IMG/VR virus record: IMGVR_UViG_3300043570_004127
Span: 96,001 to 160,000 of that record
DNA length: 64,000 nt
From: a virus
Strand: one strand, 5' to 3'
Part shown: positions 7,725 through 42,493 of the stretch, one piece after another
Layout of the letters: each line of letters starts with the position of its first letter
How positions within the stretch are numbered: position 1 is the stretch's first letter
The notes under the pieces: generated by a model
Databases searched by the model: none
Told to the model about the DNA's origin: nothing
What the model saw: only the letters and a program-made list of their open reading frames with translations
Translations under genes and position numbers: made by a program

Positions 7725-7729
7725 GAAAT

Positions 7730-7865
7730 CCTCTAGCCGGTAGCCGTTTCCAAGGGAAGAAAGGCAGGTGGTCAAAGAGTCTAGTGATTTTTCACGGCAA
7801 AACAATTCCTCTATGCTCCGAGGACATTGGAAACCCGCCTGATGCTAGAGGTCAGGCGGGTCTTT
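7730..7865 (+). ncRNA. Candidate sRNA-2 / structured leader with a 16S 3'-end complement and a terminator
   Basis: AGAAAGGCAGGTGGTC (7758-7773) resembles the complement of the 16S 3' tail. Long-range pairings 7730-37/7844-51 and 7746-53/7827-34. Terminal hairpin 7833-7861. Confidence 0.6.
7833..7865 (+). terminator. Intrinsic terminator hairpin
   Basis: ACCCGCCTGAT-gctagag-GTCAGGCGGGT followed by CTTT. Confidence 0.7.
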
Positions 7866-7888
7866 GCTGTACGGGGTAGTATTCGTCT

Positions 7889-8404: not shown

Positions 8405-8407
8405 TAC

Positions 8408-25346: not shown

Positions 25347-26633
25347 ATGACAATCCAGACATTTACAGCAGGACAAAGACTGACAGCGCTTCAGCTGAAC
25401 ACGCTCCAGGCAAGTGATTTTAATTTTACACGTAACGTTCGAAATGATTTGACGTACACTTTCGCCCTTTCAGATAAAGGTAAATTGGTAGAAAGCACTA
25501 ATGCTGGTGCGGCTGTTTTCACGATAGCCAATGACAGTTCTGTCGAATTTACCGTCGGCGACAGAATCGATGTTCTTCTTGCTTCTGTTGGCTCGGTAAC
25601 CATTTCTCCTGCCTCTGGGGTGACCCTGTATGCCGAGGGCGACATCACAACAGTTGCCTCAGCATGGACAAGGCTCACCCTTATCAAGAGAGCGGAAAAT
25701 TCCTGGGTTATGACCGGTACTGGAATGTCTGTCCAGACCGTGGAACTAGACGACCTTGCAGTCACGACTGCAAAAATCGCCAACCTCAACGTTACAACTG
25801 GAAAAATAGCAGATGATGCGGTTAACGGCGACAAAATTGCGGACTCTTCTGTAACCTCGGCACACATTGTTGATGGGACCATCGTCAACGGGGACGTCAG
25901 TGCTTCTGCAGCGATTGCTTATAGCAAATTGAATCTTGGGACGTCAATCGTTAATGCTGATGTGAGTGCATCTGCTGCGATTGATTATGCCAAGTTAAAT
26001 CTTGGCACATCAATTGTTAATGCTGACGTCAGTGCATCTGCTGCGATTGTTGACACAAAACTTGCAACCATCTCAACCGCCCTAAAGGTATCGAACTCAG
26101 CAACGACAGCAACGAATGCTAATACGGCTTCTGCAATTGTTGCCCGCGATGCTTCTGGCGACTTTTCCGCTGGAACCATTACTGCAAATTTGACAGGCAT
26201 AGCAACCTATACGGCGGAGTGGGTTCTTGGAGCAAATGGTTCTAGTCACTACACTTTTGCAGGACCAGGTTTCACTGGTTCTGAAGACGACCCCATCCTC
26301 CACCTGGTTAGAGGGCAAAAATATAAATTCACAAATACGATGGGAGCTCATCCGTTCAGAATCCAAAGCACTGTAAATGGTTCTACGGGAACTGCGTACA
26401 ATGACGGAATAACAAACAACGATGTTTCGAACGGAACATTAATTTGGGATGTTCAGTTTGACGCTCCTACTGTCCTTTACTACCAATGCACTGCTCACGG
26501 AACAATGGGTGGCGCAATTTATATTGTTAACGACACTGCTTCAATGATTGGTACTCGCACTGTGTTCGTTCAACAAGCTACGCCAACCGCTCTTGCGACT
26601 GGGGATATCTGGTTCCAGGTAACAGGACTCTAA
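25347..26633 (+). CDS. Tail fibre-associated protein: N-terminal baseplate anchor, shared docking module, repeats, cupredoxin-like C-domain
   Basis: QTFTAGQRLTA, YTFALSDKGKLV module, VTTAKIAD repeats, AHPF...YYQCTAHGTMGG. Confidence 0.7.
   Translation: MTIQTFTAGQRLTALQLNTLQASDFNFTRNVRNDLTYTFALSDKGKLVESTNAGAAVFTIANDSSVEFTVGDRIDVLLASVGSVTISPASGVTLYAEGDITTVASAWTRLTLIKRAENSWVMTGTGMSVQTVELDDLAVTTAKIANLNVTTGKIADDAVNGDKIADSSVTSAHIVDGTIVNGDVSASAAIAYSKLNLGTSIVNADVSASAAIDYAKLNLGTSIVNADVSASAAIVDTKLATISTALKVSNSATTATNANTASAIVARDASGDFSAGTITANLTGIATYTAEWVLGANGSSHYTFAGPGFTGSEDDPILHLVRGQKYKFTNTMGAHPFRIQSTVNGSTGTAYNDGITNNDVSNGTLIWDVQFDAPTVLYYQCTAHGTMGGAIYIVNDTASMIGTRTVFVQQATPTALATGDIWFQVTGL
25880..26062 (+). 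repeat. About 3 imperfect 66-bp tandem repeats (IVNADVSASAAIxxxKL)
   Basis: Seen directly: aatgctgaygtsagtgcatctgctgcgattg recurs. Confidence 0.8.
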
Positions 26634-26634: not shown

Positions 26635-28521
26635 ATGGCAATTCAATGGGGTGCATACGTTGGCCCTGCGTCAGGCTCAGGATTTAGTACTTCCAACAGG
26701 ATGCGCGTTGGCGTTGAGCTTACCGCTTCAACTCCAGCGTCAGGTCTGGATACAACCAGCACCATAACTGCTCAGATGTACACCCAGAACGAATTGTCTG
26801 GTACATCAAACTGGAATGATGCTCAAACACTGTCATCCGTTGCAAGCGTTGCTGGAGCCACATGGGGAGCGGGTGGTGCGGCTTTTACAAACCAGGAGTC
26901 AAACGGAATAACTGCTAGAGGTGTTCTTAAAACCTACACCTATACATACTCAACCTACGGTTCCAGCCCTGGAAATATCTCTTTCCAAGCAACTCTCGGT
27001 GGAGCGTTTAACGGCATCACTCCGACCGTGACTGCAACTCTTGCAATTCCCGCAAGACCTGTTACAACGACTACCACAACTACTACAACTACTACCACAA
27101 CGACCACACCAGCACCGCCGTTTTTCCCGCCAGAATTTACACCGGCAACGACTACAACAACGACTACCACTACGACGACTACGCTCCCTCCGGCTACTGC
27201 TCCAGGCGCACCAACAACAGTTCTCGGAACTGCTGGTAATGCTCAGGTTGCATTGTCTTGGACAGCTCCAGCTTCGAATGGTGGGGCATCGATTACCGAT
27301 TATGTAGTGCAGTATTCTTCTGACTCGGGCTCAACATGGGCAACATTTGCTGACGGTACATCAACTGCAGCGTCCGCCACAGTAACGGGTCTGACGAACG
27401 GAACAAGCTACATATTCCGTGTCGCAGCAGTGAACAGTGTTGGGACTGGAAGTTACTCAACATCATCGTCGGCAGTGACGCCGGTAACTACGCCGGGGGC
27501 ACCAGTAACGATTACCGCAACTCCTGGTAGTGGAGAAGTTGGATTGACATGGCTTGCCCCTGCATCAACAGGTGGGTCAAGCATCACTGATTATTCCGTT
27601 CAATATTCTTCTGACTCGGGTGGAACGTGGAGCTTGTTTTTTGAGGGCGTGTCAACCGCAACATCAGCAACTGTTACAGGCCTGACGAACGGAACGAGTT
27701 ACACATTCCGTGTTGCTGCGACAAACAGTGTTGGGACTGGACCTTACTCATTGTCATCGTCGGCAGTGACGCCTTCTGCTGCAACAACTACGACTACAAC
27801 CACCACTACAACTGCTGCCCCTACGACGACTACAGCTACAACCGCTGCTCCTGGTGTGAGTATCTCCAAGGTTTGGAATGGTTCATCCTGGGTTGCTACA
27901 ACCCCCCAGGTATGGAACGGAACGGCATGGGTGTCAGCAATATCCCGCGCATGGGATGGTATTCAATGGGTGGCTCCAGGGGCTACGACTACGACGGCTG
28001 CTCCAACGACAACTACCACTACCACGACGACGCTTGCTCCAACGACTACAACAACGACTACCACTGCCGCCCCTACGACTACAACAACGACTACCACTGC
28101 CGCTCCTACGACTACGGCTGCGCCTACAACAACTGGAGCCCCTCCATGCTTCGGTTGTACTACTGCCTCGTGGGACGGTGTCACGTATTCATGCGATGGC
28201 ACAATGAGTTACGAGTATTGGACGGCTGGATGTCCTGGATGTACAGGTGAAGGCGGATATAACGGAGCCTACAGAGACGGGAAGTGCGGTTACACGGCAC
28301 CCGTGACCACCGAGGCCACGGCTGCACCAGTTGTTTGCACTCCTTTCGACGGATATTCCTGGACTGGGGGCTATTACTATGGAGCACTCAACGAAGGTGG
28401 AGCGAGCTGTGCAACTTGGTGTAGCTGCAACCCAGTCACCAATGGCTATAGTCAATCTGTATGGAAAATATACGCCAAAGCCGGTTGTGGAAACGCCAAC
28501 CTATTCATAGGCTGTAGTTAA
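26635..28521 (+). CDS. FN3-domain virion protein with mucin-like Thr-rich linkers and a 12-Cys C-terminal domain
   Basis: Two FN3 repeats (W.AP...GG..ITDY.VQYS...VTGLTNGTSY.FRVAA.N.VGTG.YS), Thr runs, a PPFFPP motif and WNG..W repeats. Confidence 0.8.
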   Translation: MAIQWGAYVGPASGSGFSTSNRMRVGVELTASTPASGLDTTSTITAQMYTQNELSGTSNWNDAQTLSSVASVAGATWGAGGAAFTNQESNGITARGVLKTYTYTYSTYGSSPGNISFQATLGGAFNGITPTVTATLAIPARPVTTTTTTTTTTTTTTTPAPPFFPPEFTPATTTTTTTTTTTTLPPATAPGAPTTVLGTAGNAQVALSWTAPASNGGASITDYVVQYSSDSGSTWATFADGTSTAASATVTGLTNGTSYIFRVAAVNSVGTGSYSTSSSAVTPVTTPGAPVTITATPGSGEVGLTWLAPASTGGSSITDYSVQYSSDSGGTWSLFFEGVSTATSATVTGLTNGTSYTFRVAATNSVGTGPYSLSSSAVTPSAATTTTTTTTTTAAPTTTTATTAAPGVSISKVWNGSSWVATTPQVWNGTAWVSAISRAWDGIQWVAPGATTTTAAPTTTTTTTTTLAPTTTTTTTTAAPTTTTTTTTAAPTTTAAPTTTGAPPCFGCTTASWDGVTYSCDGTMSYEYWTAGCPGCTGEGGYNGAYRDGKCGYTAPVTTEATAAPVVCTPFDGYSWTGGYYYGALNEGGASCATWCSCNPVTNGYSQSVWKIYAKAGCGNANLFIGCS

Positions 28522-28557
28522 GCGCAAATTCTATTCCTAGAATAAACAGGAGAATAC

Positions 28558-28794
28558 ATGTCAGACGCACCAAGATTCATCAACCCACGAGAAACACCAG
28601 ACGGATTCGAATGGTTTGCCTTTGTTGTAGATGGCGAAGTGGCTTGGTCGGAGCCTGTACCAATCCAAGAAGAAGCAAAAATTGCTGCACTTTTGTCTGG
28701 TGTGCAAGCGGTACGTCTTGCCGGAGATGAAAGATTCACGGTTATTTCTGGATACGGATACACGGATGGTGTATTCACTCCTCCGACTGTCTAA
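28558..28794 (+). CDS. Small fibre-associated hypothetical protein
   Basis: AGGAG RBS. FAFVVDGEV...G..Y.DG.F.PP. Confidence 0.6.
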   Translation: MSDAPRFINPRETPDGFEWFAFVVDGEVAWSEPVPIQEEAKIAALLSGVQAVRLAGDERFTVISGYGYTDGVFTPPTV

Positions 28795-28824
28795 ATTTTC
28801 CTTATATTGATGTAGGATGCCTTT

Positions 28825-29055
28825 ATGACAAGTCCATGGCAAGAGTATAAAAAAAAGCTCGGCGACACACGTCCGTGGGATTTGGTAAACCCACATATTG
28901 AACACGTTTCCGAGGACGTTTCATCAGCGCGATACGCAATATGTGAAGCGTGTCCAAGTTTGCTAAAACTTACCCACCAGTGCAAAGAATGTGGTTGCTT
29001 CATGAAACTAAAAGTAAAACTACCTGCAGCAGCTTGCCCGCTCGGCAAATGGTAG
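28825..29055 (+). CDS. Small Cys-rich protein (DUF6171-like, CxxC...CxxCGC...CPxxKW)
   Basis: RYAICEACP...QCKECGCFM..K..L..A.CPLGKW. Leaderless -10 TAGGAT. Confidence 0.75.
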   Translation: MTSPWQEYKKKLGDTRPWDLVNPHIEHVSEDVSSARYAICEACPSLLKLTHQCKECGCFMKLKVKLPAAACPLGKW

Positions 29056-30068
29056 TAAAAGAGAATTTAAATAAGTACAAGATAACCGATGCCCAAATAG
29101 ACCCATTCGGTTACTGTAACGCGAAGTGCTGGTTCTGCCCTGTCAGGTATCAAAAGAATCCCCCACATGCAGCAAAGCATATGCCGGTTGATTTATTGGA
29201 CAAGATATTTTCTGAGTTGATAAAAGAAAAAGAAAAACCAAACGGTGTAGTTGAAGCAAACTTTAATCATTTTTATACCGCTCACTACAATGAGATTTTG
29301 CTATACAAGCACTTGGACGAGATGCTGTATTTGGCCAAATGTTATGGGTTAAAAACCATGATACTTTCAAACGGTGTCAATCTCACCGAAGAAAAGGTGG
29401 AGATACTCCAACGACACAAAGACGTTATAAGCGGAATCAATTTAAACATTCCCGCATTTGAGGATGGTTTATGGCAGGAACGTTCAGGAGTCACAAGATA
29501 CGATTTTGACCATGTAAGACAAAACGTATTACGAACAATGGAAGCGTTTCCAGAATACACAGCAAATGGAGCGTTTTCAATAGGTGTAAATATACCCACC
29601 GCGCCGCACATGGAAGAAAATGGCGGACGGATGGAGATGCTCGAGAATGCACCAAAGATAGATTTGGACCCCTTGACAGGAGAATCTCCGACACAAGTCG
29701 CATTGGCTAAATCGCTATTTCCCGGTCTCACTGTTTATCCAGTGGAATCATTAATTGATAGGGCTGCGATACTGGCAGAACATAAAGTGATTGATAATGC
29801 CAAAGCAATTTTGAGGTACAACAAAGGCGATAAAACTAGAGTAGTTGGTTGTTCTAATGGAACAATTGGGCGAATATATGGCTGGCTGCATGTCAACGCC
29901 CTTGGGGAAGCGTTTCTCTGCTGTAACGATTATGACTTTGACTATACTTTTGGCAACATGAACGACAGCACACTCGACGAGATATGGCGTAGCGACGAAC
30001 ATGCCGCAATGATAGAGAGAGCCTTGGGTTCAATATGTGTGTCTTGCGCAAGCGCTATATGGAAATGA
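29049..30068 (+). CDS. Radical SAM protein with a SPASM/Twitch domain
   Basis: CNAKCWFC motif; C-terminal GC...G.AFLCC.D...FGN....L.EIW...CVSC. Start moved to ATG 29049. Confidence 0.9.
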   Translation: MVVKENLNKYKITDAQIDPFGYCNAKCWFCPVRYQKNPPHAAKHMPVDLLDKIFSELIKEKEKPNGVVEANFNHFYTAHYNEILLYKHLDEMLYLAKCYGLKTMILSNGVNLTEEKVEILQRHKDVISGINLNIPAFEDGLWQERSGVTRYDFDHVRQNVLRTMEAFPEYTANGAFSIGVNIPTAPHMEENGGRMEMLENAPKIDLDPLTGESPTQVALAKSLFPGLTVYPVESLIDRAAILAEHKVIDNAKAILRYNKGDKTRVVGCSNGTIGRIYGWLHVNALGEAFLCCNDYDFDYTFGNMNDSTLDEIWRSDEHAAMIERALGSICVSCASAIWK

Positions 30069-30069
30069 T

Positions 30070-30993
30070 ATGGCATCGATATTCATACAAATACCTTCTT
30101 ATAGGGATTTTGAATTAAACAAAACTGTTGCCAGCGCAGTGACCAATGCGAGCGGAGCAAACAAGCTTTCGTTTGGTATTCATAACTGCATTTTGTTTGA
30201 TGGCGAAATAGAAGTTAAAACAGATTACCCAGAATGGGTCACTATTAACTCGGCGACAAGTATTGCACCGCAAAACATAGGCCTACAGCAGGCAAGGTAT
30301 TTAGCAAACGAGTTTTACGACGGAGAAGACTACTACCTTCAAATTGACTCGCACATGCGATTTTTCGAAAATTGGGACGCATCACTCATCAACGATATAC
30401 GCTACTATCAAAACCTGGGCTTGCCTAAGCCACTTATTACTCAGTATCCGCCAGCTTATACATACAACGACGACGGAAAAGAAAACATTCAATTCAATCA
30501 GCCGTTTTATCAATGTGGAATCTGGTTTGGCGAGAAGGTAGAAAATTTTAAGGAAACCCTAATTCCCACACAGCAAGCTCGGGTTCTTTTTGATACTTGT
30601 GGATTTATTAAATCTGTTTCTGGCGGTTTTATATTCACACTCGGAAGTTTTGCAAAAGTTAAACCAAATCCAAAAATTGCCTTTTGGGGAGAGGAACCAC
30701 TGATTGCCGCAAGGGCTTTTACTCATGGATTCGACCTGGTGATGCCCTTCTCTCACAATGTGTCTCATTTATATCACTCTCAACAGACATTTGCCAAAAC
30801 ACGTCGCCACCACATATGGGGTGATTTTTCAGAAATCTGGGGGATGATGGATGCTGAATCCAGAACAGAATACAAGAGAATATTCACCGAACGAATAATT
30901 GGCGAAGGGGCATTAGGGACAGAACGCACCCTAGATGAATACGAGGAGTTTTCTGGTTTAAATTTCAGAGACGGAACCATAACCTCATTATGA
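30070..30993 (+). CDS. Gnt1/GT60-like polypeptide (hydroxyproline/Thr) GlcNAc transferase
   Basis: IFIQIPSYRD, YYLQIDSHMRF..NWD, F.GEE..IAARAFTHG.D, HLY are signature motifs of the Skp1-HyPro GlcNAc-T family. Confidence 0.85.
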   Translation: MASIFIQIPSYRDFELNKTVASAVTNASGANKLSFGIHNCILFDGEIEVKTDYPEWVTINSATSIAPQNIGLQQARYLANEFYDGEDYYLQIDSHMRFFENWDASLINDIRYYQNLGLPKPLITQYPPAYTYNDDGKENIQFNQPFYQCGIWFGEKVENFKETLIPTQQARVLFDTCGFIKSVSGGFIFTLGSFAKVKPNPKIAFWGEEPLIAARAFTHGFDLVMPFSHNVSHLYHSQQTFAKTRRHHIWGDFSEIWGMMDAESRTEYKRIFTERIIGEGALGTERTLDEYEEFSGLNFRDGTITSL

Positions 30994-31568
30994 AGAATCT
31001 CAAAAAGATAAGTGACGATATATATATTGTAAACCTTGTTAGCGGTCGACTTGCTGCGAGGATTATGGATTCCATAAAATTACTCGAAAAGAAAGAGCCA
31101 TGTGGAGGAAGTGAACGAAACCAGTTTACGACACATTCCATAAGTGATTCCGCCTGTGTTGGTGGAATAAGACTTACAACAATTCTGCAATCGATATTCA
31201 AGAGACTAACAAATCAATACTTTCTGAGTACTGGCGTAAGACTAGAAGTTCCATCGTTCCCGAATCAAAGCTGCAATATCAAGAGTCAAGTCAAAGGCCA
31301 ATCACACGGGGTGCATACCGATGGAGGGGACAAGGATTACGGAATTGGCAGGATTCTCCACTCGTCGGTTATATGCCTAAATGATGACTACGAGGGCGGG
31401 AGCACGCAGTTTTACCTAACTGGGACAATGGAAGAACCAAACATTGATATTGACATAAAACTCAAGGCAGGTCAAGCATTAATATTTGACGCGAATCTGA
31501 ACTATCATGGGGTTACCGAAGTCCTATCTGGGACTAGGTTTAGCTTGATTCAATTTTGGAGAGAGTAG
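30990..31568 (+). CDS. 2OG-Fe(II) dioxygenase (prolyl-hydroxylase-like)
   Basis: HTD...LNDDYEGG...HGV...RFS. Confidence 0.85.
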   Translation: MKNLKKISDDIYIVNLVSGRLAARIMDSIKLLEKKEPCGGSERNQFTTHSISDSACVGGIRLTTILQSIFKRLTNQYFLSTGVRLEVPSFPNQSCNIKSQVKGQSHGVHTDGGDKDYGIGRILHSSVICLNDDYEGGSTQFYLTGTMEEPNIDIDIKLKAGQALIFDANLNYHGVTEVLSGTRFSLIQFWRE

Positions 31569-31570
31569 TC

Positions 31571-32641
31571 ATGAATACAGATAGCGATAACAGATTCTAC
31601 GGAACGACACCAGATGTCCGCAATGACGAAACTGTGTCCGAAATCTTTAACATGCAATTTGAAGATTTGGGTGGTGGGGTAATTCGTTTCCCGGCAGCAA
31701 TAGATGTTGACAAAGACATGCTTTTACCGTATATAGATAAAAACTCAAAATCCGCGCACGAACAAAGATGGACGTGGGCCAAGGATGAAGAAGGCAATGA
31801 CTACGCAATAAACGAAGATGGCAACAAGTTTTCTCCAGAACAGGTAAAGATGGTTCCAGTAAGACTGCTTGAAGTAGTTAACTCTGGGACAGAGCCAGAG
31901 ATGATAGAAGTGTTTAGATACTGGGAAGACACTATTTACAAGTGTCTCCTGCGGTACATAGATATATTCCCAATGGTCCTTGGAACAATCTGGTGGAGAA
32001 CCAAGGGTCACGTAATGCGCTATGACGAGGGGGCATTCCTTGGCATACACAACGACAACGACTCAAATTACAGGGCCACAGGTGGCGAGCGATTTGTGCC
32101 GCGTGGACAAATACAGATGCGTCAAGTTGTGGCGGTGATGTTCTACATTAACGATTGTGTTGAAGATGAATCAGAACTAGATGGCACAAACTTCACTGGT
32201 GGGGAATTAGTTTTCCCATATCTCGGAATAAAGAACACTCCAAAAACCGGGGATGTTGTTATCTTCCCTGCAAACTACATTGCAACACATGGAGTTGAGC
32301 CAGTGAAAAAGGGCGTCCGATATGGATACCTTGAATTCTTCAGTCAAGGAAGCAGTCACGATGAAGTTGGAATTAACGTTTCAGAACCAGATAAATGTGA
32401 TGGCTGGTGTAGGCCACACTTCATAGATGCGCTTTATGACGACTACAAGCACTACTGCAAGCAAACCGAATTCATGGGGAATGGTGATTCAGCAAAAGAC
32501 GCAAACGGAATGTTTAAAGCAAATCCGGTTTATCAAAACAGAACGCTTGAAGGTGAAAACGGTCTAAAGAAGGCTTATTCACATTCCCAGGTTGTATACG
32601 ACAATGAGCAGCGCGGCAGGGAACACAGCAGCTTGTACTAA
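31571..32641 (+). CDS. 2OG-Fe(II) dioxygenase (LGGG subfamily)
   Basis: HND...FTGGEL.FP...FPANY..THGV...RY. Start moved to ATG 31571. Confidence 0.85.
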   Translation: MNTDSDNRFYGTTPDVRNDETVSEIFNMQFEDLGGGVIRFPAAIDVDKDMLLPYIDKNSKSAHEQRWTWAKDEEGNDYAINEDGNKFSPEQVKMVPVRLLEVVNSGTEPEMIEVFRYWEDTIYKCLLRYIDIFPMVLGTIWWRTKGHVMRYDEGAFLGIHNDNDSNYRATGGERFVPRGQIQMRQVVAVMFYINDCVEDESELDGTNFTGGELVFPYLGIKNTPKTGDVVIFPANYIATHGVEPVKKGVRYGYLEFFSQGSSHDEVGINVSEPDKCDGWCRPHFIDALYDDYKHYCKQTEFMGNGDSAKDANGMFKANPVYQNRTLEGENGLKKAYSHSQVVYDNEQRGREHSSLY

Positions 32642-33372
32642 GTGTTTTCTACGATACCAACGTGAACATAACCCTGCCCGGAATGCTGAACATCTGCTGC
32701 AAGACTATTTAGCTTGTTTTCTTCCTGAACCTCCATCTTTGCATCCCCTTGGCAGAACCACTGCAGATAAGAATTCCTTACCCCGGATGTGATTGGCTCA
32801 ACTTCATGACAGCCCATAAATGACGACGGATATATCAAAACCGAGCCAACTTTTGGACGTACGGTTATACCCCACGGCCTGAATCTTATATTTCCTCCCT
32901 CGTATTCCTCATTGAGGGCCATTGAACCAGTAAGGGTGTTGTGGAGCGGGAAGGTGTTCAGAACATTCCCTTCCTTGTCGTAAGGTAGGGCACAGTCGCT
33001 ATGCGGTCCAATAGTTTGACCAATTGAGTACGAAGCAATCTGCCCACCTGTTCTCCAGCCAATACACTCAATTGCTACTGGGAACGAGCGACAATATTCA
33101 ATTAGGCATCTATAAATGCCGTCATTAATCAAGGTTGTTATTTCTTTTGTGAATTCGGAGCCGTATGAAAGTCCATTAAACCTGGTTGGCATTTTTAATA
33201 CGTGCTCTTGCGTAACCGCGTAACCGCCATCATTGGTTAATGACTCAACATTCACGCCATGCGTTGCATCTAGATTTTCAGCAAAAATTCTTTCAAGATA
33301 TGCCTCGAAATTGGATGCGTCTACCACATCTTCAAACAGCATTACCCCGTTCCCAAGATGCTTCACAATCAT
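32638..33372 (-). CDS. 2OG-Fe(II) dioxygenase (LGGG subfamily)
   Basis: HSD...LNEEYEGG...HEV...RNS. Confidence 0.85.
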   Translation of the reverse strand: MIVKHLGNGVMLFEDVVDASNFEAYLERIFAENLDATHGVNVESLTNDGGYAVTQEHVLKMPTRFNGLSYGSEFTKEITTLINDGIYRCLIEYCRSFPVAIECIGWRTGGQIASYSIGQTIGPHSDCALPYDKEGNVLNTFPLHNTLTGSMALNEEYEGGNIRFRPWGITVRPKVGSVLIYPSSFMGCHEVEPITSGVRNSYLQWFCQGDAKMEVQEENKLNSLAADVQHSGQGYVHVGIVENT

Positions 33373-34241
33373 GAGTGCATACTTTCAACCAGGCTGTGAC
33401 CAACCGAAGTTTTTCCTGGGTCGACCTTATTTAGGTAATCAGTAAAGTCGGAGCGAAGTGTTGGCATGTACACATTGGTTGCGGTTTTTGCCAACTCAGG
33501 CGACTCCACTGGGTCAACTATGTGCTCGTTAACAGCCTCGTTTGGTGTTCCGTGGGAATACCATCCAAGATACGTGTACCTACTACCGCCGGTAGTCTCC
33601 TTGACTTCATGAGCAGCCATGTAGTTCGACGGGAACATCAATATGTCGCCGGCGGAAGGTTTGTAGTCAATGTCAAGATAATTAAAGTAATGATGCCCGC
33701 CTTCAAAATTATCGTTCAAGTACACAATGCATGAGATTGTGTTTCTCGTGGCCAGCTGGTCGTGTGGGTGAGGGAATCCATAGGCATAGTCGGCACTCGT
33801 GTCGGAGTGCGGCCCAAGAAACTTACCACCATTCTCCACAGAATAAGAAACCAGGTGACCTTTTACTTTCCACCAAACGTTCTTGTATGCCAAGGGGAAA
33901 AGATAGAAGTATTTGAGTAGATATGCGTCTTTTGATTTCTCCACAAACTCCAGAAAATCACTTATGTCCTCATCTGGATTCTGGTGTATTCGTGAACCGC
34001 GGCGAGGCATTTGATTCACTCCGTCGGCATCAAAATAGTACCCACTTCTATTTATGAATGCAGGTTCACCTGTCTCTGGGTCTATTGCCTCTTCGTACAT
34101 TTGAGCGCGTTCTTCCGCGACTTGTTTTTCTGCAAATGCGCTTGCCCAATCGTTGTCGAAAGAGATGGCTCCACTAAAAACAACCACTCCACCGCCGAGG
34201 TGTTTGGGCTCCACATCGTTGAACTTCTGCTCTTGATTCAT
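33369..34241 (-). CDS. 2OG-Fe(II) dioxygenase (LGGG subfamily)
   Basis: HSD...YLNDNFEGG...FPSNY..AHEV...RYT. Confidence 0.85.
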   Translation of the reverse strand: MNQEQKFNDVEPKHLGGGVVVFSGAISFDNDWASAFAEKQVAEERAQMYEEAIDPETGEPAFINRSGYYFDADGVNQMPRRGSRIHQNPDEDISDFLEFVEKSKDAYLLKYFYLFPLAYKNVWWKVKGHLVSYSVENGGKFLGPHSDTSADYAYGFPHPHDQLATRNTISCIVYLNDNFEGGHHYFNYLDIDYKPSAGDILMFPSNYMAAHEVKETTGGSRYTYLGWYSHGTPNEAVNEHIVDPVESPELAKTATNVYMPTLRSDFTDYLNKVDPGKTSVGHSLVESMHS

Positions 34242-34259
34242 ACAGTGTATGATAGCCCA
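34242..34259. promoter_or_regulatory. Bidirectional overlapping -10 elements driving two divergent leaderless genes
   Basis: Plus strand: TATGAT (34248-53), 6 nt, ATG 34260. Minus strand: TATCAT (34254-49), 7 nt, ATG 34241. Confidence 0.6.
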
Positions 34260-34583
34260 ATGAGCGAAAAAAACGAGGCATTCAATAGGTGGACTGAAAT
34301 AATGGTTCAGGAGTTCGCCAAGCTACCTAATATGGTCGAAAAAGATGGCTACAACAATTGGGCAGACAACATACTCCCAGGCCAAATCGAGGACAAGTAT
34401 TACACGGTCGGCCGCACTGGAGCAGAAGCAATGATGGCTTTCTGGGGAGACATTGCCGATGGCAAGATGGCCGACTTGTTAAATGAGTTCAACGTACCAA
34501 ATCCACTTGGGCTAATACACTCATCAAGCACGCTTGCTAAACACCTTTTTGTGACCGAAAAGATGTTCTCAAAAAAAACTTAG
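34260..34583 (+). CDS. Hypothetical protein (107 aa), counter-oriented within the enzyme array
   Basis: ATG 34260 (MSEKNEAFNRW...). Fills the gap exactly; its stop overlaps the stop of the 34580 gene. Confidence 0.65.
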   Translation: MSEKNEAFNRWTEIMVQEFAKLPNMVEKDGYNNWADNILPGQIEDKYYTVGRTGAEAMMAFWGDIADGKMADLLNEFNVPNPLGLIHSSSTLAKHLFVTEKMFSKKT

Positions 34584-35440
34584 TGGTCGTCGGCCCTGCT
34601 TAGATAGTCAACTTTTTCTTGCGGAGCATTCGAAATAGAACCATACTTTTCAATTAAATGGTTTTCATAATCCTTGATTATCGAAGGCAGCCACCATTGA
34701 CCGTTGTTCTGGAACATCGTTTCTTCTGGATGCGCTGGTGAGCATCCGCGCTCATCATCTTGCGAACCCTGAGCAAACCATGTCAGGTAGGAATACCTTA
34801 CCCCTCGTGTTACTTCGTTTATCTGATGAGCACCTATATAGTTTGCCGGCATCAGAACAATCGCGCCGGTTGACGGAGCAATATCTATATCGAAATACGG
34901 GATTGTCATGGTTCCACCAGAGAACGAATACTCAACTGATTCGTCATCGGTGCAGTCGTTGAAATATACAAGCGCTGAAAGAACGTTGCGTGTTGCATGT
35001 TGTTCTTTGGGCTCTCTACCGTAGCGATAGTTCACATCGTTGTCGGCGTGAAATCCAAGACCGCCGCTTTTTGCATACCTCAAAACATGACCAGGGCTCT
35101 TCCACCAGAGACACTGCAGGACAGCGGGAAACATTTCTATATAATGCAAAAGTGCGCCGTATATTGCTTTTTCACATTCTTGGAAAAATGGGATATCCAA
35201 GCTTCCTATCCTTATTGGAGCTTTATCCATGTCCTCTAGGTCGTAGATGAACCCACCCTTATTAATTGCGTGGAGTGGATTGCCGTCTTCATCCTTAATA
35301 ATCGTGTACGAGTTATTGAAAGCTTCATCCTTCTTTTTGTCAAGATACTCAAATGCCTCTTTTTGTGGAATATTGATTGCATTCTTAAAAATTACAGTTC
35401 CGCCGCCAAGGTGTTCTGGATTAAAGTTGAAATTGCTCAT
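34580..35440 (-). CDS. 2OG-Fe(II) dioxygenase (LGGG subfamily)
   Basis: HAD...YFND...GG...PANY.GAHQI...RYS. Confidence 0.85.
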   Translation of the reverse strand: MSNFNFNPEHLGGGTVIFKNAINIPQKEAFEYLDKKKDEAFNNSYTIIKDEDGNPLHAINKGGFIYDLEDMDKAPIRIGSLDIPFFQECEKAIYGALLHYIEMFPAVLQCLWWKSPGHVLRYAKSGGLGFHADNDVNYRYGREPKEQHATRNVLSALVYFNDCTDDESVEYSFSGGTMTIPYFDIDIAPSTGAIVLMPANYIGAHQINEVTRGVRYSYLTWFAQGSQDDERGCSPAHPEETMFQNNGQWWLPSIIKDYENHLIEKYGSISNAPQEKVDYLSRADDH

Positions 35441-36048
35441 AAAAGAGATTGTACAGCCTGGATGATGGTCATATCCATCTCGCTAGTTTCTACTGTTTCT
35501 GCTAGTGGTTTAACGCTAAATCTAAATCTGTACATCTGCCTGCCGTCTTTGCCAACTATAAATTTTTCGTAATAAGCATGTATTTTCTGCACCGCCCCAC
35601 CGGCAAGGTTTTGACCCTGGGCAGCAGACAGACTGGTTCCAGCTTTTGTATCATCAACAAGCCTTTTTGCATACCCTTTCATATGTGAGCATATTGGGTG
35701 TTCGTTATCTCCATTGATTTCCACTTTTTCCGTAATAGGAAAAGTCACAAATGGGTAAACTTCTTTAATAAAGTTAGATATTTCATGGTTATCCAAAGGC
35801 TCCATGTTCCAGAATTGGTTAGTTGGAACTCCTACAACGCTAAAATCATCAAACATTTCATGCAGTTTCTGGAGTTCCCACAGATTTTTGGAAGTTCTCC
35901 CGTATGACCAAATGCGACTACATTTTGGCTCGTACCCCGCTTTTGAACCAAAAGGGAAAAAGAGCGTTACTTTACCCTTAAGGCTAGAAAGTATGTTCTC
36001 ATCCCCATCTATCGATTTGATTGGTATGTCGTAAATTGATTGATTCAT
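35437..36048 (-). CDS. Glutathione-peroxidase-fold protein (divergent active site)
   Basis: SIYDIPIKSIDG..LKGKV, GVPTNQF..EP, FPITEKVEING.NEHP, EKFIVGKDG. Confidence 0.8.
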   Translation of the reverse strand: MNQSIYDIPIKSIDGDENILSSLKGKVTLFFPFGSKAGYEPKCSRIWSYGRTSKNLWELQKLHEMFDDFSVVGVPTNQFWNMEPLDNHEISNFIKEVYPFVTFPITEKVEINGDNEHPICSHMKGYAKRLVDDTKAGTSLSAAQGQNLAGGAVQKIHAYYEKFIVGKDGRQMYRFRFSVKPLAETVETSEMDMTIIQAVQSLL

Positions 36049-36950
36049 GACAAATGTCCGGCTATTGAATATTCCGCAAACTGACCAATCTTCGCCAAAC
36101 CCACAACATCACCATTTTCTTCATCGATAGAAAATCTTATACTTATTTCGGCTATTACTGGTGTATCCACAGAGAACGATGCATCGAACGAGGTATCCGT
36201 ATTAGTAAAACTCTCTATAAAGTACTTCCCGGTTGAATTAAATATTTCAGCAACATTTCCTTTTATCCCAAGGTTCACATCTTCTTTTCCAAATGGGGTG
36301 TTAATCCTAAGACAGTAAAACTTATCATACCCACCATTTTCATTTTCGGCGGAGCGAGAGTACGCAGTCCAGTCTTGGGTTGGTTTTACGTTAGGGTCTT
36401 TCGGTGCAAAATTTGCACTTACGACCAAACGTGCTTCCTCTCTGTTTCGATGCCTATTTGTCATGTGTGTTAAATAGGAATTAAAGATTATCAAATCTCC
36501 TGTTTCCGGTTTTATCTCTATGGAGTTTTCGATTGTGTTTCCAGCATTCACTAGAAATATCAAATCGGCGCTTCCGTCTGGGGCGCACGGATAGTAAGCG
36601 ATTGAGAAATACTCTTCGGGGTGTAGATGCGTGTTTGATTTGTGGGAGTGTGCCGAGACCGACTGCCCAAATTCAAGGCTCAGTGTCCATATGTCGCTCA
36701 TAACCATCTCTCGACCAACCGCGGTTGAAACTCGTTCCGTCAACTTGTCAATGAGCTTTTCTGACTCAATCATTCCAAATGGATATTTTCTATCTTCGTA
36801 ATATGTGTGATGCTTGTCGTCCATAAACGAATCGTCTATTTCTCCGTGAGCACCAGCAATCTCTTCCAGAAGTTTGGAATTATCAATACCGATTATCTTC
36901 GTTTTAAGGACATCAATCGACACCAGGTTTATTTTCTCAATATCACTCAT
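36045..36950 (-). CDS. Putative 2OG-Fe(II) oxygenase (TIGR02466-like) with a C-terminal beta domain
   Basis: HSH...FSIAYY...GDLIIFNSYL.H...RLVVSANF. Confidence 0.75.
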   Translation of the reverse strand: MSDIEKINLVSIDVLKTKIIGIDNSKLLEEIAGAHGEIDDSFMDDKHHTYYEDRKYPFGMIESEKLIDKLTERVSTAVGREMVMSDIWTLSLEFGQSVSAHSHKSNTHLHPEEYFSIAYYPCAPDGSADLIFLVNAGNTIENSIEIKPETGDLIIFNSYLTHMTNRHRNREEARLVVSANFAPKDPNVKPTQDWTAYSRSAENENGGYDKFYCLRINTPFGKEDVNLGIKGNVAEIFNSTGKYFIESFTNTDTSFDASFSVDTPVIAEISIRFSIDEENGDVVGLAKIGQFAEYSIAGHLS

Positions 36951-37617
36951 AGAAGAATTCGCCTAATTTTAGCGCAGTTGGTGGATTGTCTCGATGCCAC
37001 ACGTTTGTGACCATGACTTGCCTGATTCCGCTCTTTGCAGGTGTGGTCCCATGGACAACGTGGCCAGTATCAAAAATGATTACACGGTTACCCTTGTAGG
37101 CGATTCTTTCACGCTCTTCAACTGGAACTAATAACGTGTTGATGTTTTCAGACTCAATAGCCAGTTTTTCTCCATCTTTCAAAATGGCTTTATTGTATAT
37201 TTCAACAAAACCACCATCCTGATTGTCGAGACCATAGAATATCGAGCCAGTCAATGGGCCACTAAAAGTCTTTGACTCCTGGTAAAGAAAGGTGTCTTCA
37301 TCGACATGAACATCAAGATACTGGCCTGGGAGATAGGTTCTTGTCCAGTACTCAATACCGAGGATTTCGCTTGTATCGCATGGAAGGTTGTCTTCCCAAA
37401 TTGCCTGAACGACCCGCTTCCTTAATGTGTTTGCTGGAGTGGACCACCATCCATCCCAAAACATATATGGAGCAAAACAACTTGACTTTTCGTAATGGTA
37501 CGAATTCAGCTCTGTAGCTAATCTTTCGTCAGAGCCCATTGACTCTGGGAAAAATAGTTTGTCAGCTAATACATCTTCATACAAAGAATCATTGAGTGCA
37601 TTGTCTTTTATAATCAT
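36943..37617 (-). CDS. 2OG-Fe(II) dioxygenase
   Basis: GIEYW...HVDED...GNRVIIFD..HG....R. Confidence 0.75.
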   Translation of the reverse strand: MIIKDNALNDSLYEDVLADKLFFPESMGSDERLATELNSYHYEKSSCFAPYMFWDGWWSTPANTLRKRVVQAIWEDNLPCDTSEILGIEYWTRTYLPGQYLDVHVDEDTFLYQESKTFSGPLTGSIFYGLDNQDGGFVEIYNKAILKDGEKLAIESENINTLLVPVEERERIAYKGNRVIIFDTGHVVHGTTPAKSGIRQVMVTNVWHRDNPPTALKLGEFFYE

Positions 37618-38348
37618 GATTCTCCTTTGACGACAATAGTCATTCCGTAAAACAGAGGAACGTGATACACGCTGCAGCCGGATATCCTCTTAAGCGCTTC
37701 GTGGTATCCCCAGATTGGAGTTGCCTTTGTGTGATTGTTGTACAGAAACATACTGTCAGAGGTATTTTGGATTATCAGAATCCCGTTATCCTCGAGCCTG
37801 TCGACAAAGGCGCTAACAGGGATTAGTGGATTCTCCATATCCTGCGACCAAGAGAGCATCATGTCGTACTTATTGTTTACATGCTTTTCAAAATCCTGCA
37901 TTGTAACGACGTCATAGTCGTCAATTGGGTCTTGGAACTTTTCATACAGACTAAGTTTTTTGTTGTTGAGAAAGGTAATGTGGGCCCCATGTATCGACTT
38001 AAAAACCTTTAATCTGAACCTATCGAGACCACCTGAAATTGCCAATACATTTTTCTTCTTTGAGATATCCATAATCCCAAGAATTAGAAGAATCGACATC
38101 CATTGAGCCTGACCATACGCACTTGAAAGATTTGGTCTTGGATAATGGACAACGAACTCATAATCGCTCGCACCGCCGGTGGCAATATTCCTTCTATCAA
38201 TACCAACCGTATTGAAAAGATACTCGGCTATAGCGACAGAGTGACCACCATCTTCGCGGTTGCATTGGTCTGCATATTCTTCCCAATTAAACTGAAGAGA
38301 ACTAAAATCAAAAGAAACTTCAGGTTCATACCTTTTATCTTGTTCCAT
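37614..38348 (-). CDS. Methyltransferase-fold-like protein
   Basis: KNVLAI, KYDMML, DRLEDNGILII resemble class I SAM-MTase elements, but the motifs are degenerate. Confidence 0.45.
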   Translation of the reverse strand: MEQDKRYEPEVSFDFSSLQFNWEEYADQCNREDGGHSVAIAEYLFNTVGIDRRNIATGGASDYEFVVHYPRPNLSSAYGQAQWMSILLILGIMDISKKKNVLAISGGLDRFRLKVFKSIHGAHITFLNNKKLSLYEKFQDPIDDYDVVTMQDFEKHVNNKYDMMLSWSQDMENPLIPVSAFVDRLEDNGILIIQNTSDSMFLYNNHTKATPIWGYHEALKRISGCSVYHVPLFYGMTIVVKGES

Positions 38349-38616
38349 TTGTCACCTCGTATAGAGCAGCCTGCACATCAAACCAAGCACGGCGGACATT
38401 TCTTGTCAGTGTGATATTTTGTCTTTTTATATAGTCCTTAACACTGGAATCAATTTCGGTGTCATGGTCATATCGGTATCTGTCTCGAATTGCGTTTACG
38501 CAATCGTCTATTGTGATTTCGTCAAAACGCGATTCATCAAACCCGAGTATGAACAAGTATGCTGCAAGCTGTTCTGAACGATACGCCAAATCGGCAACTG
38601 GGTCATACCTGCTCAT
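38335..38616 (-). CDS. Hypothetical protein
   Basis: 93-aa ORF overlapping both neighbours in the operon. Confidence 0.6.
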   Translation of the reverse strand: MSRYDPVADLAYRSEQLAAYLFILGFDESRFDEITIDDCVNAIRDRYRYDHDTEIDSSVKDYIKRQNITLTRNVRRAWFDVQAALYEVTNGTR

Positions 38617-38794
38617 CTTTTTCCTTTTTCACATCAAACATTGCTACACCTTGACACATTGATACAGGCTTACCAGCAACATAATAGACACCGGTGCTTG
38701 AGTCCCATTCAATAATCTCGTTATCCCACTCTTCGGCGTCAGTTATTGCTTCACCTTTTCTGGTGCTCATCTTGAAGTCTTGTGGCTCATCCAT
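38603..38794 (-). CDS. Small acidic hypothetical protein
   Basis: 63-aa ORF coupled to its neighbours. Confidence 0.55.
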   Translation of the reverse strand: MDEPQDFKMSTRKGEAITDAEEWDNEIIEWDSSTGVYYVAGKPVSMCQGVAMFDVKKEKDEQV

Positions 38795-39002
38795 CTTTAA
38801 GTGCTTCCAATGCGGAGTACTCGTTTGACATAAGCCTAAAAGCGTTGTACTCTATTGTTCCTTCTTCGTGCGTATTTTCCCCAGAATACACGGGGGTCAT
38901 ACCCTCGCTCGCCATCAACTGACTCATCTCCCCTATTGACGCGGTCAGAAATCGTGCAGCCCTATTCTTTGCCATTAGAGGGTCATATTTTCCAAGTTTC
39001 AT
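38787..39002 (-). CDS. Small hypothetical protein
   Basis: 71-aa ORF; ATGA overlap with the upstream oxygenase. Confidence 0.55.
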   Translation of the reverse strand: MKLGKYDPLMAKNRAARFLTASIGEMSQLMASEGMTPVYSGENTHEEGTIEYNAFRLMSNEYSALEALKDG

Positions 39003-39616
39003 AAAAGTTCACGTATCCTCTCGTGCAGGCCAACAAGCTTATCAGTCGTATAAAAAGATGCAAGGGTGTACCTATCCCCACTGAGAACAGGCTTTACCTC
39101 GTGTCTAAACTCGGAGCCGCTTGGGAAGAAAACTAGCTGATTTGCTTTCGGCTTAATCATCAGGTCAAGTTCTTCAAAATACAACTCACCCCCATCGTAA
39201 TCAGCATTGAGGTAGAGGATTGATGAGTACTCATTTAGGACTTCAGACATCTGGTTGTTTGGGTCGTAGTTTCTGAGTGGCTCTGGATTGCCCCCGTAGT
39301 ATCCTTCTGCATCTGCGTGCATTTTAAGATACGAGCCAGGCAGGTACTTTCTTAAATACGGTTCATACAAGAAGCACAACCTCCTACCCACCGTGGCGGA
39401 TACGAGCGCCAATGCTCTAGATGAGACGTCTATGCGTTCCTGGCAGTCTGGTCTTTCGGTATATCTTTCACCGTCTAGATACTCCTGCCAGGTGTTATCC
39501 CAATGAATGAATTCCTTGCACTTATAAAGAATTTTTGACAATTCGTCACTCGTTGCAAAGTTGTCAACAACATGAACATTTCTTATCAATAAATCTTTAT
39601 AATCAAGCATCGACAT
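38999..39616 (-). CDS. 2OG-Fe(II) dioxygenase
   Basis: HAD...YLNADYDGGELYF...FPS...HEV...RYT. Confidence 0.88.
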   Translation of the reverse strand: MSMLDYKDLLIRNVHVVDNFATSDELSKILYKCKEFIHWDNTWQEYLDGERYTERPDCQERIDVSSRALALVSATVGRRLCFLYEPYLRKYLPGSYLKMHADAEGYYGGNPEPLRNYDPNNQMSEVLNEYSSILYLNADYDGGELYFEELDLMIKPKANQLVFFPSGSEFRHEVKPVLSGDRYTLASFYTTDKLVGLHERIRELL

Positions 39617-39618
39617 TA

Positions 39619-41523: not shown

Positions 41524-41577
41524 AGTCCCAGTCTATACATATCGGAGATGTCCATACGCCACCTGGAGATACGTGAT

Positions 41578-42462: not shown

Positions 42463-42493
42463 CCTTCACAAACGCTTCATCCATTACTGCAGT

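Follow-up and report, generated by a model that had tools for sequence, protein, structure and literature searches.

In Dictyostelium and Toxoplasma, a proline of Skp1 is hydroxylated by PhyA and then GlcNAcylated by Gnt1. In mycobacteriophages, according to work attributed to Freeman et al. (2023, Cell Host Microbe), phage glycosyltransferases reportedly act in the cytoplasm on structural proteins of the phage itself, the acceptors being C-terminal extensions of capsid and tail-tube subunits; no radical-SAM partner is said to be involved, and the hosts and glycosyltransferase families are said to differ from those of the GT60 phage cassette described here. In the eukaryote Trypanosoma cruzi, the GT60 enzyme is a membrane protein of the Golgi. 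It adds alpha-GlcNAc to threonines of mucins and starts the O-glycosylation of these Thr-rich proteins (PMC3769586). GT60 and GT27 are sister families that both carry out polypeptide Ser/Thr O-glycosylation, and the replacement of DxD by DxH is their hallmark (PMC7185993). Besides these protein-modifying systems, phage clusters combining a 5mYOX/TET oxygenase, a GT-A enzyme and an epimerase glycosylate 5hmC in DNA. The GT-A enzymes of these clusters display DDD/EDY motifs, resemble JGT and TarP, and are encoded beside DNA-metabolism genes (bioRxiv 10.1101/2023.12.21.572611).

The window analysed here, a stretch of 64,000 nucleotides from a viral metagenome record, includes a gene of the GT60 family (Table 1). 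ORF 30070-30993 matches PF11397, 'Glycosyltransferase (GlcNAc)', with a score of 125.7 bits (cut-off 21; E 4e-36; Pfam, with a six-frame check), covering profile positions 1-36 and 111-303 of 352, and it also matches the glycosyltransferase phrog_24687. The first-pass annotation, which had called the gene Gnt1/GT60-like and named an HMM search as the means to confirm the family, is borne out by this score. PF11397 is likewise present in 120/120 GT60 homologues among the matches listed (588 homologues in all), the closest metagenomic ones including P0001, which is 95% identical. A GTG at 30037, upstream of the ATG, offers an alternative start, less likely because GT60 homologues begin with M-[AS]-S-I-F. 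No second PF11397 copy was found in the 79.5-kb record by six-frame profile search.

The triplet D93-S-H95 (nt 30346-30354) is invariant across 22 homologues, as are W206-G-E-E, H219 and H233. In the structure model of the enzyme (pLDDT 87, pTM 0.90), D93-S-H95 is placed at the end of the core strand 88-92, a position suggesting that it is equivalent to the family DxH. The best fold matches of the model are the mouse GalNAc-T1 (8v9q; Z 21.0 over 266 aligned residues, with an rmsd of 3.4 A) and T. gondii GalNAc-T3 (Z 18.6), other GT-A enzymes scoring Z 16.7 or less and TarP Z 14.0. The 25 top Foldseek matches are all ppGalNAc-Ts, including ppGalNAc-T2/PGANT9. A PDB sequence search with the GT60 profile gave no match, and neither a signal peptide nor a membrane segment was found in the sequence. 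ORF 30070-30993 is a member of the GT60 family with a GT-A fold and a DxH motif, and its product is predicted to be a polypeptide O-HexNAc transferase.

The closest solved structures are those of the animal and apicomplexan GT27 polypeptide GalNAc-transferases, which have the DxH metal site in common with the phage enzyme and use mucin peptide acceptors, as proposed for the latter. The phage enzyme is nevertheless classed in another CAZy family, is only 12% identical to them in sequence and has neither a lectin domain nor a membrane anchor. With the T. cruzi GT60, it shares PF11397 and DxH, a (putative) acceptor made of Thr-dominated mucin-like tracts with Pro spacers and, by prediction, the role of chain starter. 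In contrast to the trypanosome enzyme, it is soluble, limited to 307 aa without extension, encoded beside its putative acceptor gene and, in two thirds of loci, paired with a radical-SAM/SPASM (rSAM) enzyme. As regards isolated viruses, megablast of 28500-33500 against GenBank phages gave no match, and for the large terminase, identity to any isolate does not exceed 42%. A protein search with GT60 gave matches only in four jumbo Xanthomonas/Stenotrophomonas phages (26% identity). The GT60-like genes of these phages stand among DNA-replication genes, with a DNA polymerase, an RNase H and a carbamoyltransferase nearby, so that the family need not always target fibre proteins. A scan of genome contigs retrieved two MAG contigs only and no host clue, and the literature search yielded no paper on the function of PF11397 or GT60 in phages and nothing on DUF6171.

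Table 1. Features of the fibre module, the two-gene insert and the 2OG oxygenase island (positions within the window).
Feature	Position	Strand	Length	Profile or content	Place
Tail-fibre-like protein	25347..26633	+	428 aa	phrog_677, phrog_892	heads fibre module
Mucin-like fibre protein, candidate acceptor	26635..28521	+	628 aa	fn3 (E 3e-26), Thr tracts	
Thr tract	27046-27204		aa 138-190		in mucin-like fibre protein
Thr tract	27763-27858		aa 377-408		in mucin-like fibre protein
Thr tract	27976-28143		aa 448-503		in mucin-like fibre protein
DUF6171 six-Cys mini-protein	28825..29055	+	76 aa	PF19668, phrog_13558	left flank of insert
Radical-SAM/SPASM enzyme	29049..30068	+	339 aa from ATG	PF04055, PF13186	first gene of insert
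GT60-family soluble GT-A glycosyltransferase	30070..30993	+	307 aa from ATG	PF11397	
2OG-Fe(II) oxygenase	30990..31568	+	192 aa	PF13640	right flank of insert
Further 2OG gene	31571-32641				
Further 2OG gene	32638-33372				
Further 2OG gene	33369-34241				
Further 2OG gene	34580-35440				
Further 2OG gene	36045-36950				
Further 2OG gene	36943-37617				
Further 2OG gene	38999-39616				
Further 2OG gene	40858-41523				
Further 2OG gene	42494-43156				

The first protein of the fibre module matches phrog_677 (baseplate wedge tail fibre connector, E 5e-34) as well as phrog_892 (tail fibre), and in most related loci homologues of it (cluster c3) precede the cassette. The second, whose gene lies 1.5 kb upstream of GT60, had been described in the first-pass annotation as a protein with Thr runs and a PPFFPP motif, an accurate description. 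Indeed, it successively comprises an N-domain, a Thr tract including PPFFPPEF (aa 161-168), two FN3 domains, a second Thr tract, Trp-rich repeats, a third Thr tract and a 12-Cys C-terminal domain. Thr represents 154 of its 628 residues (24.5%), encoded by mixed ACN codons, and Pro accounts for 16% of the tracts, in which AAP/PAP spacers recur regularly. No other protein of the window carries such Thr tracts.

Between this module and the oxygenases, the rSAM and GT60 genes form a distinct unit. The rSAM/SPASM protein carries a CX3CX2C motif; its best solved relative by sequence is BtrN (E 2.4e-4), and an Atlas look-up gave only phage clusters of the same family. Its gene stops 2 nt ahead of the GT60 start codon; with this gap and the ATGA overlap downstream of GT60, the rSAM gene, GT60 and two 2OG genes make up a single tightly packed operon. 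The closest GT60-less relatives are also devoid of rSAM, and in the GT60-less relatives L164, L165 and L167, DNA homology to the window stops exactly at both ends of the rSAM+GT60 block. This block (29049-30993) is a two-gene insert between the DUF6171 and 2OG oxygenase genes. Across related loci, the rSAM/SPASM gene is present in 45/69 GT60-positive versus 0/51 GT60-negative ones, and a GalE-like epimerase in 34/69 versus 0/51; in 33 distinct loci, translational coupling links the epimerase to GT60. As an accessory dependent on GT60, the rSAM enzyme may alter the sugar or the Thr tract; a by-eye comparison of the Cys flanking the Thr tracts revealed no difference between rSAM-positive and rSAM-negative loci.

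The left flank is not GT60-specific. The DUF6171 gene (PF19668 at E 2.6e-5, slightly below the cut-off; phrog_13558 at E 5e-17) has only phage DUF6171 clusters as Atlas neighbours. It stands upstream of GT60 in 73/78 GT60-positive loci and might have passed for a conserved partner of the transferase. It was rejected as such, for a sample gathered blind to GT60 has DUF6171 in nearly every relative, GT60 or not.

The distribution of Thr tracts was then compared with that of GT60, strict poly-Thr being defined as at least 13 T in 20 aa or a T run of at least 6. A Thr-rich ORF is found in 66 of 79 loci (78 GT60-positive viral loci and the window), nearly always three to five genes upstream of GT60 on the same strand, and these ORFs fall into many unrelated sequence clusters. 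When all loci are considered, strict poly-Thr occurs upstream in 40/69 GT60-positive versus 0/51 GT60-negative ones. After dereplication at 90% nucleotide identity (74 distinct loci), the counts become 27/45 versus 0/29 (Fisher p 1.5e-8); in the GT60-blind sample, fetched via a neighbouring gene and comprising 80 of the 319 relatives of that gene, they are 5/9 versus 0/28 (p 2.9e-4). Along the tree of the neighbouring gene, GT60 undergoes ten or more changes of state, none of them accompanied by an opposite shift in Thr content, whereas a phylogenetically strict sign test, with 5 well-supported contrasts, gives p 0.125-0.25. Within the clade of the window, GT60-less relatives keep the FN3 protein and poly-Thr is absent from them. 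GT60 co-occurs with poly-Thr tracts, rSAM and epimerase, and the earlier suggestion that a Thr-rich virion protein is an acceptor for O-glycosylation draws support from these presence/absence comparisons.

The association is not uniform. No strong poly-Thr is found in 18/45 distinct GT60-positive loci, most of which carry (PT)n tracts, and the GT60s associated with (PT)n tracts constitute one clade of the GT60 tree (support 100). (PT)n linkers were nevertheless discarded as a GT60 marker, since they are also common in the fibres of GT60-negative loci. In loci L008 and L012, no Thr tract was found upstream despite the presence of GT60 and rSAM. Moreover, GT60 and the fibre gene are located within some 3 kb of each other, close enough for recombination to swap them together, and part of the association of GT60 with poly-Thr could thus reflect linkage rather than function.

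On the right flank, the 192-aa protein scores 38 bits with PF13640 (2OG-FeII_Oxy_3), whose cut-off is 27. Its active site is intact, with H109-x-D111, H173 and R183-x-S invariant in 19 orthologues. The AlphaFold model (pLDDT 80) finds its best Foldseek matches (TM 0.6-0.69) in PHD2, bacterial and algal prolyl 4-hydroxylases and the Dictyostelium PhyA (6t8m), WelO5 and PiuC being also among the best. A sequence search with the oxygenase gave only a weak match to prolyl 3-hydroxylase 1. The modelled fold is prolyl-hydroxylase-like, as the first reading of the neighbouring gene had proposed; such a fold does not show the substrate. This gene is the first of at least ten 2OG oxygenase genes forming an island, with GT60 at its edge. 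Further along, a protein encoded on the minus strand at 45272-46075 displays about 20 PP[FY]F repeats.

The first-pass annotation had linked these two genes into a hydroxylase-transferase pair of the PhyA/Gnt1 type. In such a two-step route, the oxygenase or a paralogue would hydroxylate prolines of the fibre (PAPPFFPPEF, AAP, LAP), and GT60 would then add GlcNAc to hydroxyproline. Gnt1 belongs to the same GT family as the phage enzyme, both being soluble and cytoplasmic (by prediction for the phage); the complete HxD...H...RxS site, the PhyA-like fold of the oxygenase and the Pro content and spacers of the Thr tracts fit this scheme too, and the PP[FY]F-repeat protein would be a plausible substrate for many 2OG enzymes. 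The ATGA stop/start overlap of both genes is real (30990-30993) and had been taken as a sign of coupling. It was not retained as evidence, because such overlaps are routine in the window, where a 4-nt overlap is found at 8/54 same-strand junctions and 10 more junctions overlap otherwise. Adjacency to an oxygenase is itself expected by chance for a gene bordering an island of ten or more 2OG genes. Orthologues of the oxygenase (56-83% identity) directly follow DUF6171 in L164, L165 and L167, relatives devoid of both GT60 and rSAM, whereas none was found in the 78 GT60-positive loci (0/78), and the rSAM+GT60 insert stands between the two genes in the window. Among GT60-positive loci, 18/69 have a 2OG gene after DUF6171, versus 25/51 of the GT60-negative ones, so that 2OG genes are not enriched with GT60. 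The oxygenase was therefore rejected as a conserved partner of GT60; it goes with DUF6171 as an older pair, and the cassette does not require it. Unlike in the PhyA/Gnt1 system, the hydroxylase and the transferase are not inherited together, and it is Thr, not Pro, that tracks GT60. The pairing proposed at first finds no support in these data, and a Skp1-type route appears improbable.

Two other targets deserve consideration, namely DNA and components of the host or of a peptide pathway. Hypermodification of DNA, in which a 2OG oxygenase would make 5-hydroxymethylpyrimidine and the GT-A enzyme would glycosylate the base with the help of an epimerase, has a precedent in phage GT-A and epimerase pairs glycosylating 5hmC (bioRxiv 10.1101/2023.12.21.572611). 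As in those clusters, coupling to a GalE-like epimerase is frequent among GT60 relatives, and 2OG oxygenases lie nearby; the replication-gene setting of the jumbo-phage GT60-like genes and a weak Tet_JBP match of the oxygenase (about 23.6-23.8 bits) point the same way. However, no frame of the 79.5-kb record passes the Tet_JBP cut-off of 34.9 bits, no TET/JBP structure is among the top fold matches of the oxygenase, and the record contains no TET/JBP-class oxygenase. GT60 displays DxH instead of the R..DDD..EDY/F of DNA GT-A enzymes, its model is nearer to GalNAc-transferases than to TarP, and the cassette sits in a tail-fibre module and tracks poly-Thr tracts. Neither a PF00303 thymidylate-synthase-like hydroxymethylase nor a PF00145 C5-methyltransferase is found in the record, an absence of little weight because the record is about 54% complete. 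Modification of DNA is, on balance, highly improbable. It also appears improbable that GT60, with rSAM, modifies a molecule of the host (for instance a surface protein, a pilin, a flagellin or an envelope glycan) to assist takeover or superinfection exclusion, or that the cassette produces a small glycosylated peptide from a DUF6171 precursor. It is well known that phage glycosyltransferases can alter host surfaces, rSAM/SPASM enzymes typically act as peptide maturases (the one in the window has weak NCBIfam matches to CbpB, DynA and KxxxW maturases), and a small six-Cys protein is encoded directly upstream. Yet GT60 lacks an export signal or membrane anchor in its sequence, and this explanation does not account for the link with poly-Thr fibre tracts. 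DUF6171 is conserved at 50-80% identity over its full length and is present in 51/51 classifiable loci without rSAM and GT60; it is therefore neither a hypervariable precursor nor cassette-specific. A RiPP cluster made of a DUF6171 precursor, an rSAM/SPASM maturase and a glycosyltransferase was rejected, DUF6171 not being co-inherited specifically with the maturase.

The explanation that appears probable, with moderate confidence, is a soluble O-HexNAc transfer by GT60 to the Thr tracts of fibre proteins. According to this proposal, a mobile two-gene cassette of rSAM/SPASM and GT60 would have been inserted in the tail-fibre module of an uncultured myovirus. GT60 would be a soluble, Mn-dependent GT-A enzyme of the family that starts protist mucin-type O-glycosylation and, in the cytoplasm of the infected cell, would most likely move HexNAc from a UDP-sugar to Thr hydroxyls. 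Its target would be the poly-Thr/(T4-9-A-A-P)n tracts in the product of the fibre gene immediately upstream, and the glycosylated linkers would become stiff, protease-resistant and glycan-coated stalks. The sugar is probably GlcNAc in the window, where GT60 has no epimerase partner, and may be the 4-epimer in relatives with a GalE-like partner. The acceptor, the sugar and the benefit to the phage are inferred, the first two from the gene neighbourhood. Given the Pro content of the tracts, hydroxyproline may also contribute. Compared with virion glycosylation in mycobacteriophages, the proposed acceptor is a poly-Thr fibre stalk, and an rSAM partner is present.

A more speculative extension, judged rather unlikely, gives both enzymes a part in the chemistry, because rSAM occurs only with GT60 and is packed against it. 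Together, they may install a radical-modified sugar, or a glycosylated and radical-altered Thr, on fibre stalks, as a portable 'mucin stalk' kit for evolving poly-Thr linkers. If this is true, it would be a type of protein glycosylation without described counterpart, and the cassette would be a portable kit letting phages evolve poly-Thr linkers in their receptor-binding fibres.

These results correct the appealing comparison with the Skp1 oxygen-sensing pathway, which finds no support. They give a simple genomic rule, namely that, in the related loci examined, poly-Thr fibre tracts occur only where GT60 is present, and they point to an uncharacterised radical-SAM partner. GT60 itself is a small, soluble, bacterial-expressible candidate for making mucin-type glycopeptides. 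Tail fibres decide host range and face proteases and grazers. If O-HexNAc transfer to their Thr tracts is true, an enzyme family whose study has until now been confined to protists would be at work in phages, virion glycosylation in phages would reach tail fibres, beyond the actinophage cases, and uncultured freshwater-type tailed phages would make their own mucin-like glycoproteins.

The predicted glycosyltransferase of the cassette is a GT60 enzyme by profile, fold and motif, with a predicted catalytic activity. It matches PF11397 at 125.7 bits in a profile search (cut-off 21), as the first-pass annotation had anticipated. Across 22 homologues (57-86% identical), D93-S-H95, W-G-E-E at 206-209, H219 and H233 are invariant. 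DxH in place of DxD is characteristic of GT27 and GT60, two sister families whose common activity is polypeptide Ser/Thr O-glycosylation, GT60 having so far been described only in prokaryotes and protists (PMC7185993). No solved structure was detectable by sequence-based search, and the confident structure model (pLDDT 87, pTM 0.90) places polypeptide GalNAc-transferases at the top rank in Foldseek. In an independent all-against-all structural search, mouse GalNAc-T1 (Z 21.0, 266 residues, 3.4 Å) and Toxoplasma GalNAc-T3 (Z 18.6) are followed by chondroitin polymerase (16.7), SpsA (15.3) and TarP (14.0). As the protein starts directly at the first core strand, without signal or membrane segment, it is predicted to be soluble and cytoplasmic.

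The source record is a 79.5-kb IMG/VR virus record, estimated to be about 54% complete. Proteins encoded in the window include a portal, several that resemble fibres, a tail sheath, and a large terminase that reaches no more than 42% identity to any from an isolated phage. Plus-strand genes are tightly packed from the tail-fibre-like protein through the 356-aa oxygenase, with 2 nt between the stop of the radical-SAM/SPASM gene (rSAM) and the GT60 start codon, and an ATGA overlap between the GT60 stop and the start of the 192-aa oxygenase.

Features of the window and of related viral loci (L-numbers)
Locus	Feature	Coordinates	Strand	Match
Window	Tail-fibre-like protein	25347-26633	+	
Window	628-aa protein: three Thr tracts, two FN3 domains, Cys-rich end	26635-28521	+	
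Window	Cys-rich C-terminal part of 628-aa protein	28139-28521	+	
Window	78-aa ORF	between 628-aa protein and DUF6171 genes	+	
Window	DUF6171 six-Cys mini-protein	28825-29055	+	
Window	Radical-SAM/SPASM enzyme	29049-30068	+	
Window	Glycosyltransferase GT60	30070-30993	+	PF11397
Window	192-aa 2OG oxygenase	30990-31568	+	PF13640
Window	356-aa 2OG oxygenase	31571-32641	+	
Window	2OG-Fe(II) island, at least 10 genes	30990-43156	both	PF13640 or PF13759
Window	Glutathione-peroxidase-family protein, in island	35437-36048		PF00255, E 6e-16
Window	DUF6065 protein, in island	39619-40323		
Window	267-aa PP[FY]F repeat protein	45272-46075	-	
L037-L042	DUF7164 protein, opposite strand to GT60	about 9700-10720	-	
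L053, L055	Tandem copy beside GT60			
L057	594-aa fusion	7131-8915		
L172 (Xanthomonas phage XacN1)	GT60-like gene	6992-8365		
L173 (Stenotrophomonas phage RAS14)	GT60-like gene	7001-8437		

The 192-aa oxygenase keeps its HxD...H...RxS signature in 19/19 aligned orthologues. Fold matches of its model are prolyl hydroxylases, Dictyostelium PhyA among them, as well as WelO5 and PiuC, TET/JBP enzymes being absent from the top matches. A prolyl-hydroxylase-like gene does overlap GT60, as first described, but the proposal that both form a coupled pair is not supported. Of 78 GT60-positive viral loci onto which the window genes were mapped, none carried an orthologue of this oxygenase (best match 44% over 68 residues, in the common core). 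Orthologues exist (56-83% identical), and ten viral loci carry one. The closest of these display the order fibre, FN3 protein, DUF6171, 192-aa oxygenase orthologue and the window's oxygenase array, with neighbouring oxygenases 83-91% identical to those of the window and with both rSAM and GT60 absent. DNA homology to these GT60-less loci ends at 29054, the DUF6171 end, and restarts at 30987-31192, at or just within the oxygenase start; rSAM and GT60 are therefore an insert of two genes that spans 1.94 kb. Of the 120 loci that could be classified, 18/69 with GT60 and 25/51 without it have a 2OG gene immediately after DUF6171, hence no enrichment with GT60. Since GT60 stands at the edge of the 2OG island and four-base overlaps occur at 8/54 same-strand junctions in the window, adjacency and overlap are expected from compaction and chance.

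DUF6171 followed directly by a 2OG oxygenase of about 200 aa is a recurring, GT60-independent backbone pair (L082-L159, L162-L167 and the window). DUF6171 is conserved over its whole length with its six Cys kept; this conservation and its distribution contradict the idea that DUF6171 is the precursor of a peptide natural product. It was also rejected as a GT60 partner, being upstream in 73/78 GT60-positive loci yet also present in practically all relatives from a GT60-blind control (80 loci retrieved through a conserved 198-aa gene that precedes the fibre), so that it belongs to the backbone rather than the cassette.

Two other genes travel with GT60. The presence of rSAM depends on GT60 (45/69 loci with it, 0/51 without); among solved structures it is related by sequence only to BtrN, a sugar-oxidising enzyme (E 2.4e-4), its NCBIfam matches being weak and limited to the core. 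A short SDR enzyme, usually overlapping the GT60 stop codon, occurs in 34/69 vs 0/51 loci and is GalE-like (PF01370; TIGR01179 at E 1e-28, below that model's cut-off). Compared with locus L004, rSAM is 95% identical, GT60 74% and DUF6171 68%, which suggests recent recombination inside the operon. A second transferase-like gene adjoins GT60 in some relatives, as a DUF7164 protein, a tandem copy or a 594-aa fusion (see the table), a hint that some phages extend the glycan.

The candidate acceptor, the 628-aa protein, contains 24.5% Thr encoded by mixed ACN codons, and its PPFFPPEF sequence sits between two Thr runs, in agreement with the initial description of Thr runs and PPFFPP upstream of the pair. 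In 66/79 loci (window included), a same-strand Thr-rich ORF precedes GT60 by three to five genes, most of the other loci ending short on the upstream side. These ORFs belong to many unrelated sequence clusters but have in common tracts such as poly-T, (TTTTAAP)n, (TTTTVAP)n and (T6PAP)n (pooled composition: Thr 52%, Pro 16%, Ala 15%). Strict poly-Thr (at least 13 T in 20 residues or a run of at least 6, in an ORF at most 4.5 kb upstream of DUF6171) was found in 40/69 loci with GT60 vs 0/51 without, in 27/45 vs 0/29 after dereplication at 90% nucleotide identity (Fisher p 1.5e-8), and in 5/9 vs 0/28 in the GT60-blind sample alone (p 2.9e-4). A tree built from the 198-aa neighbour shows at least 10 changes of GT60 state. 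In each contrast the side with GT60 has the higher Thr measure, never the reverse, a strict sign test being unable to reach significance because only five contrasts lie on well-supported branches. GT60-less relatives in the window clade keep the FN3 homologue of the 628-aa protein but lack any Thr tract (no more than 9 T in 20, no run longer than 4). (PT)n linkers are not diagnostic since they also occur in fibres without GT60; GT60s whose fibres have only (PT)n linkers group in a single well-supported clade, which fits enzyme-acceptor co-variation or common descent.

In the last ~125 residues of the 628-aa protein, 12 Cys are interspersed with Gly, Tyr and Trp, and Cys often flanks Thr tracts in relatives; possibly these are mini-domains, stabilised by disulfides or metal, at the tip of the fibre. 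The 267-aa protein carries two FN3-like modules, then about 20 tandem PP[FY]F units (PPYFPPFFPPFF...) at its end, a motif occurring once in the 628-aa protein, as PPFFPPEF. This repeat region is possibly a polyproline-type stalk, and the protein could conceivably be a substrate of the many 2OG oxygenases.

Transfer of the sugar onto hydroxylated Pro would suit the regular Pro within the tracts, but it lost its genomic argument with an oxygenase not inherited with GT60 and is improbable. Even less credence is given to DNA glycosylation by GT60 with a 2OG oxygenase or epimerase. Phage GT-A/epimerase pairs do occur beside TET-like oxygenases (10.1101/2023.12.21.572611), and GT60-like genes (26% identity) among replication genes of jumbo Xanthomonas and Stenotrophomonas phages call for caution, whereas the motifs and fold neighbours of GT60 differ from those of DNA GT-A enzymes, the cassette sits in a tail-fibre module, and the record, itself incomplete, revealed neither a TET/JBP-class oxygenase nor a methyltransferase/hydroxymethylase. 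Those jumbo-phage genes, of about 460 aa, are the only GT60-like ones in GenBank phage records and adjoin DNA polymerase, RNase H, a NUDIX protein and a carbamoyltransferase; this different context may mean a different substrate.

Among known systems, the T. cruzi Thr-mucin GlcNAc-transferase (PMC3769586) is the most similar to the predicted mode of action of phage GT60, whereas the Skp1 pathway is the least similar. In the literature, no account of GT60 function in phages, nothing on DUF6171 and no report of a radical-SAM partner for a GT60-type enzyme were found. Phage enzymes reportedly glycosylate virions in mycobacteriophages (Freeman et al. 2023).

Family, fold, motif, insertion and co-occurrence of GT60 are demonstrated by the results above, whereas we infer the acceptor, the sugar and the benefit to the phage as follows. 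During infection, soluble GT60 would place O-linked sugar on the fibre protein's Thr tracts ahead of assembly, using UDP-HexNAc and a divalent metal held by DxH. In the window phage, where no epimerase is present, the most likely donor is UDP-GlcNAc because it is ubiquitous, a 4-epimer donor being plausible in loci with the GalE-like partner. Dense O-HexNAc would make the linkers stiffer and protected, as in mucins, and would extend the distal FN3 and Cys-rich domains outwards.
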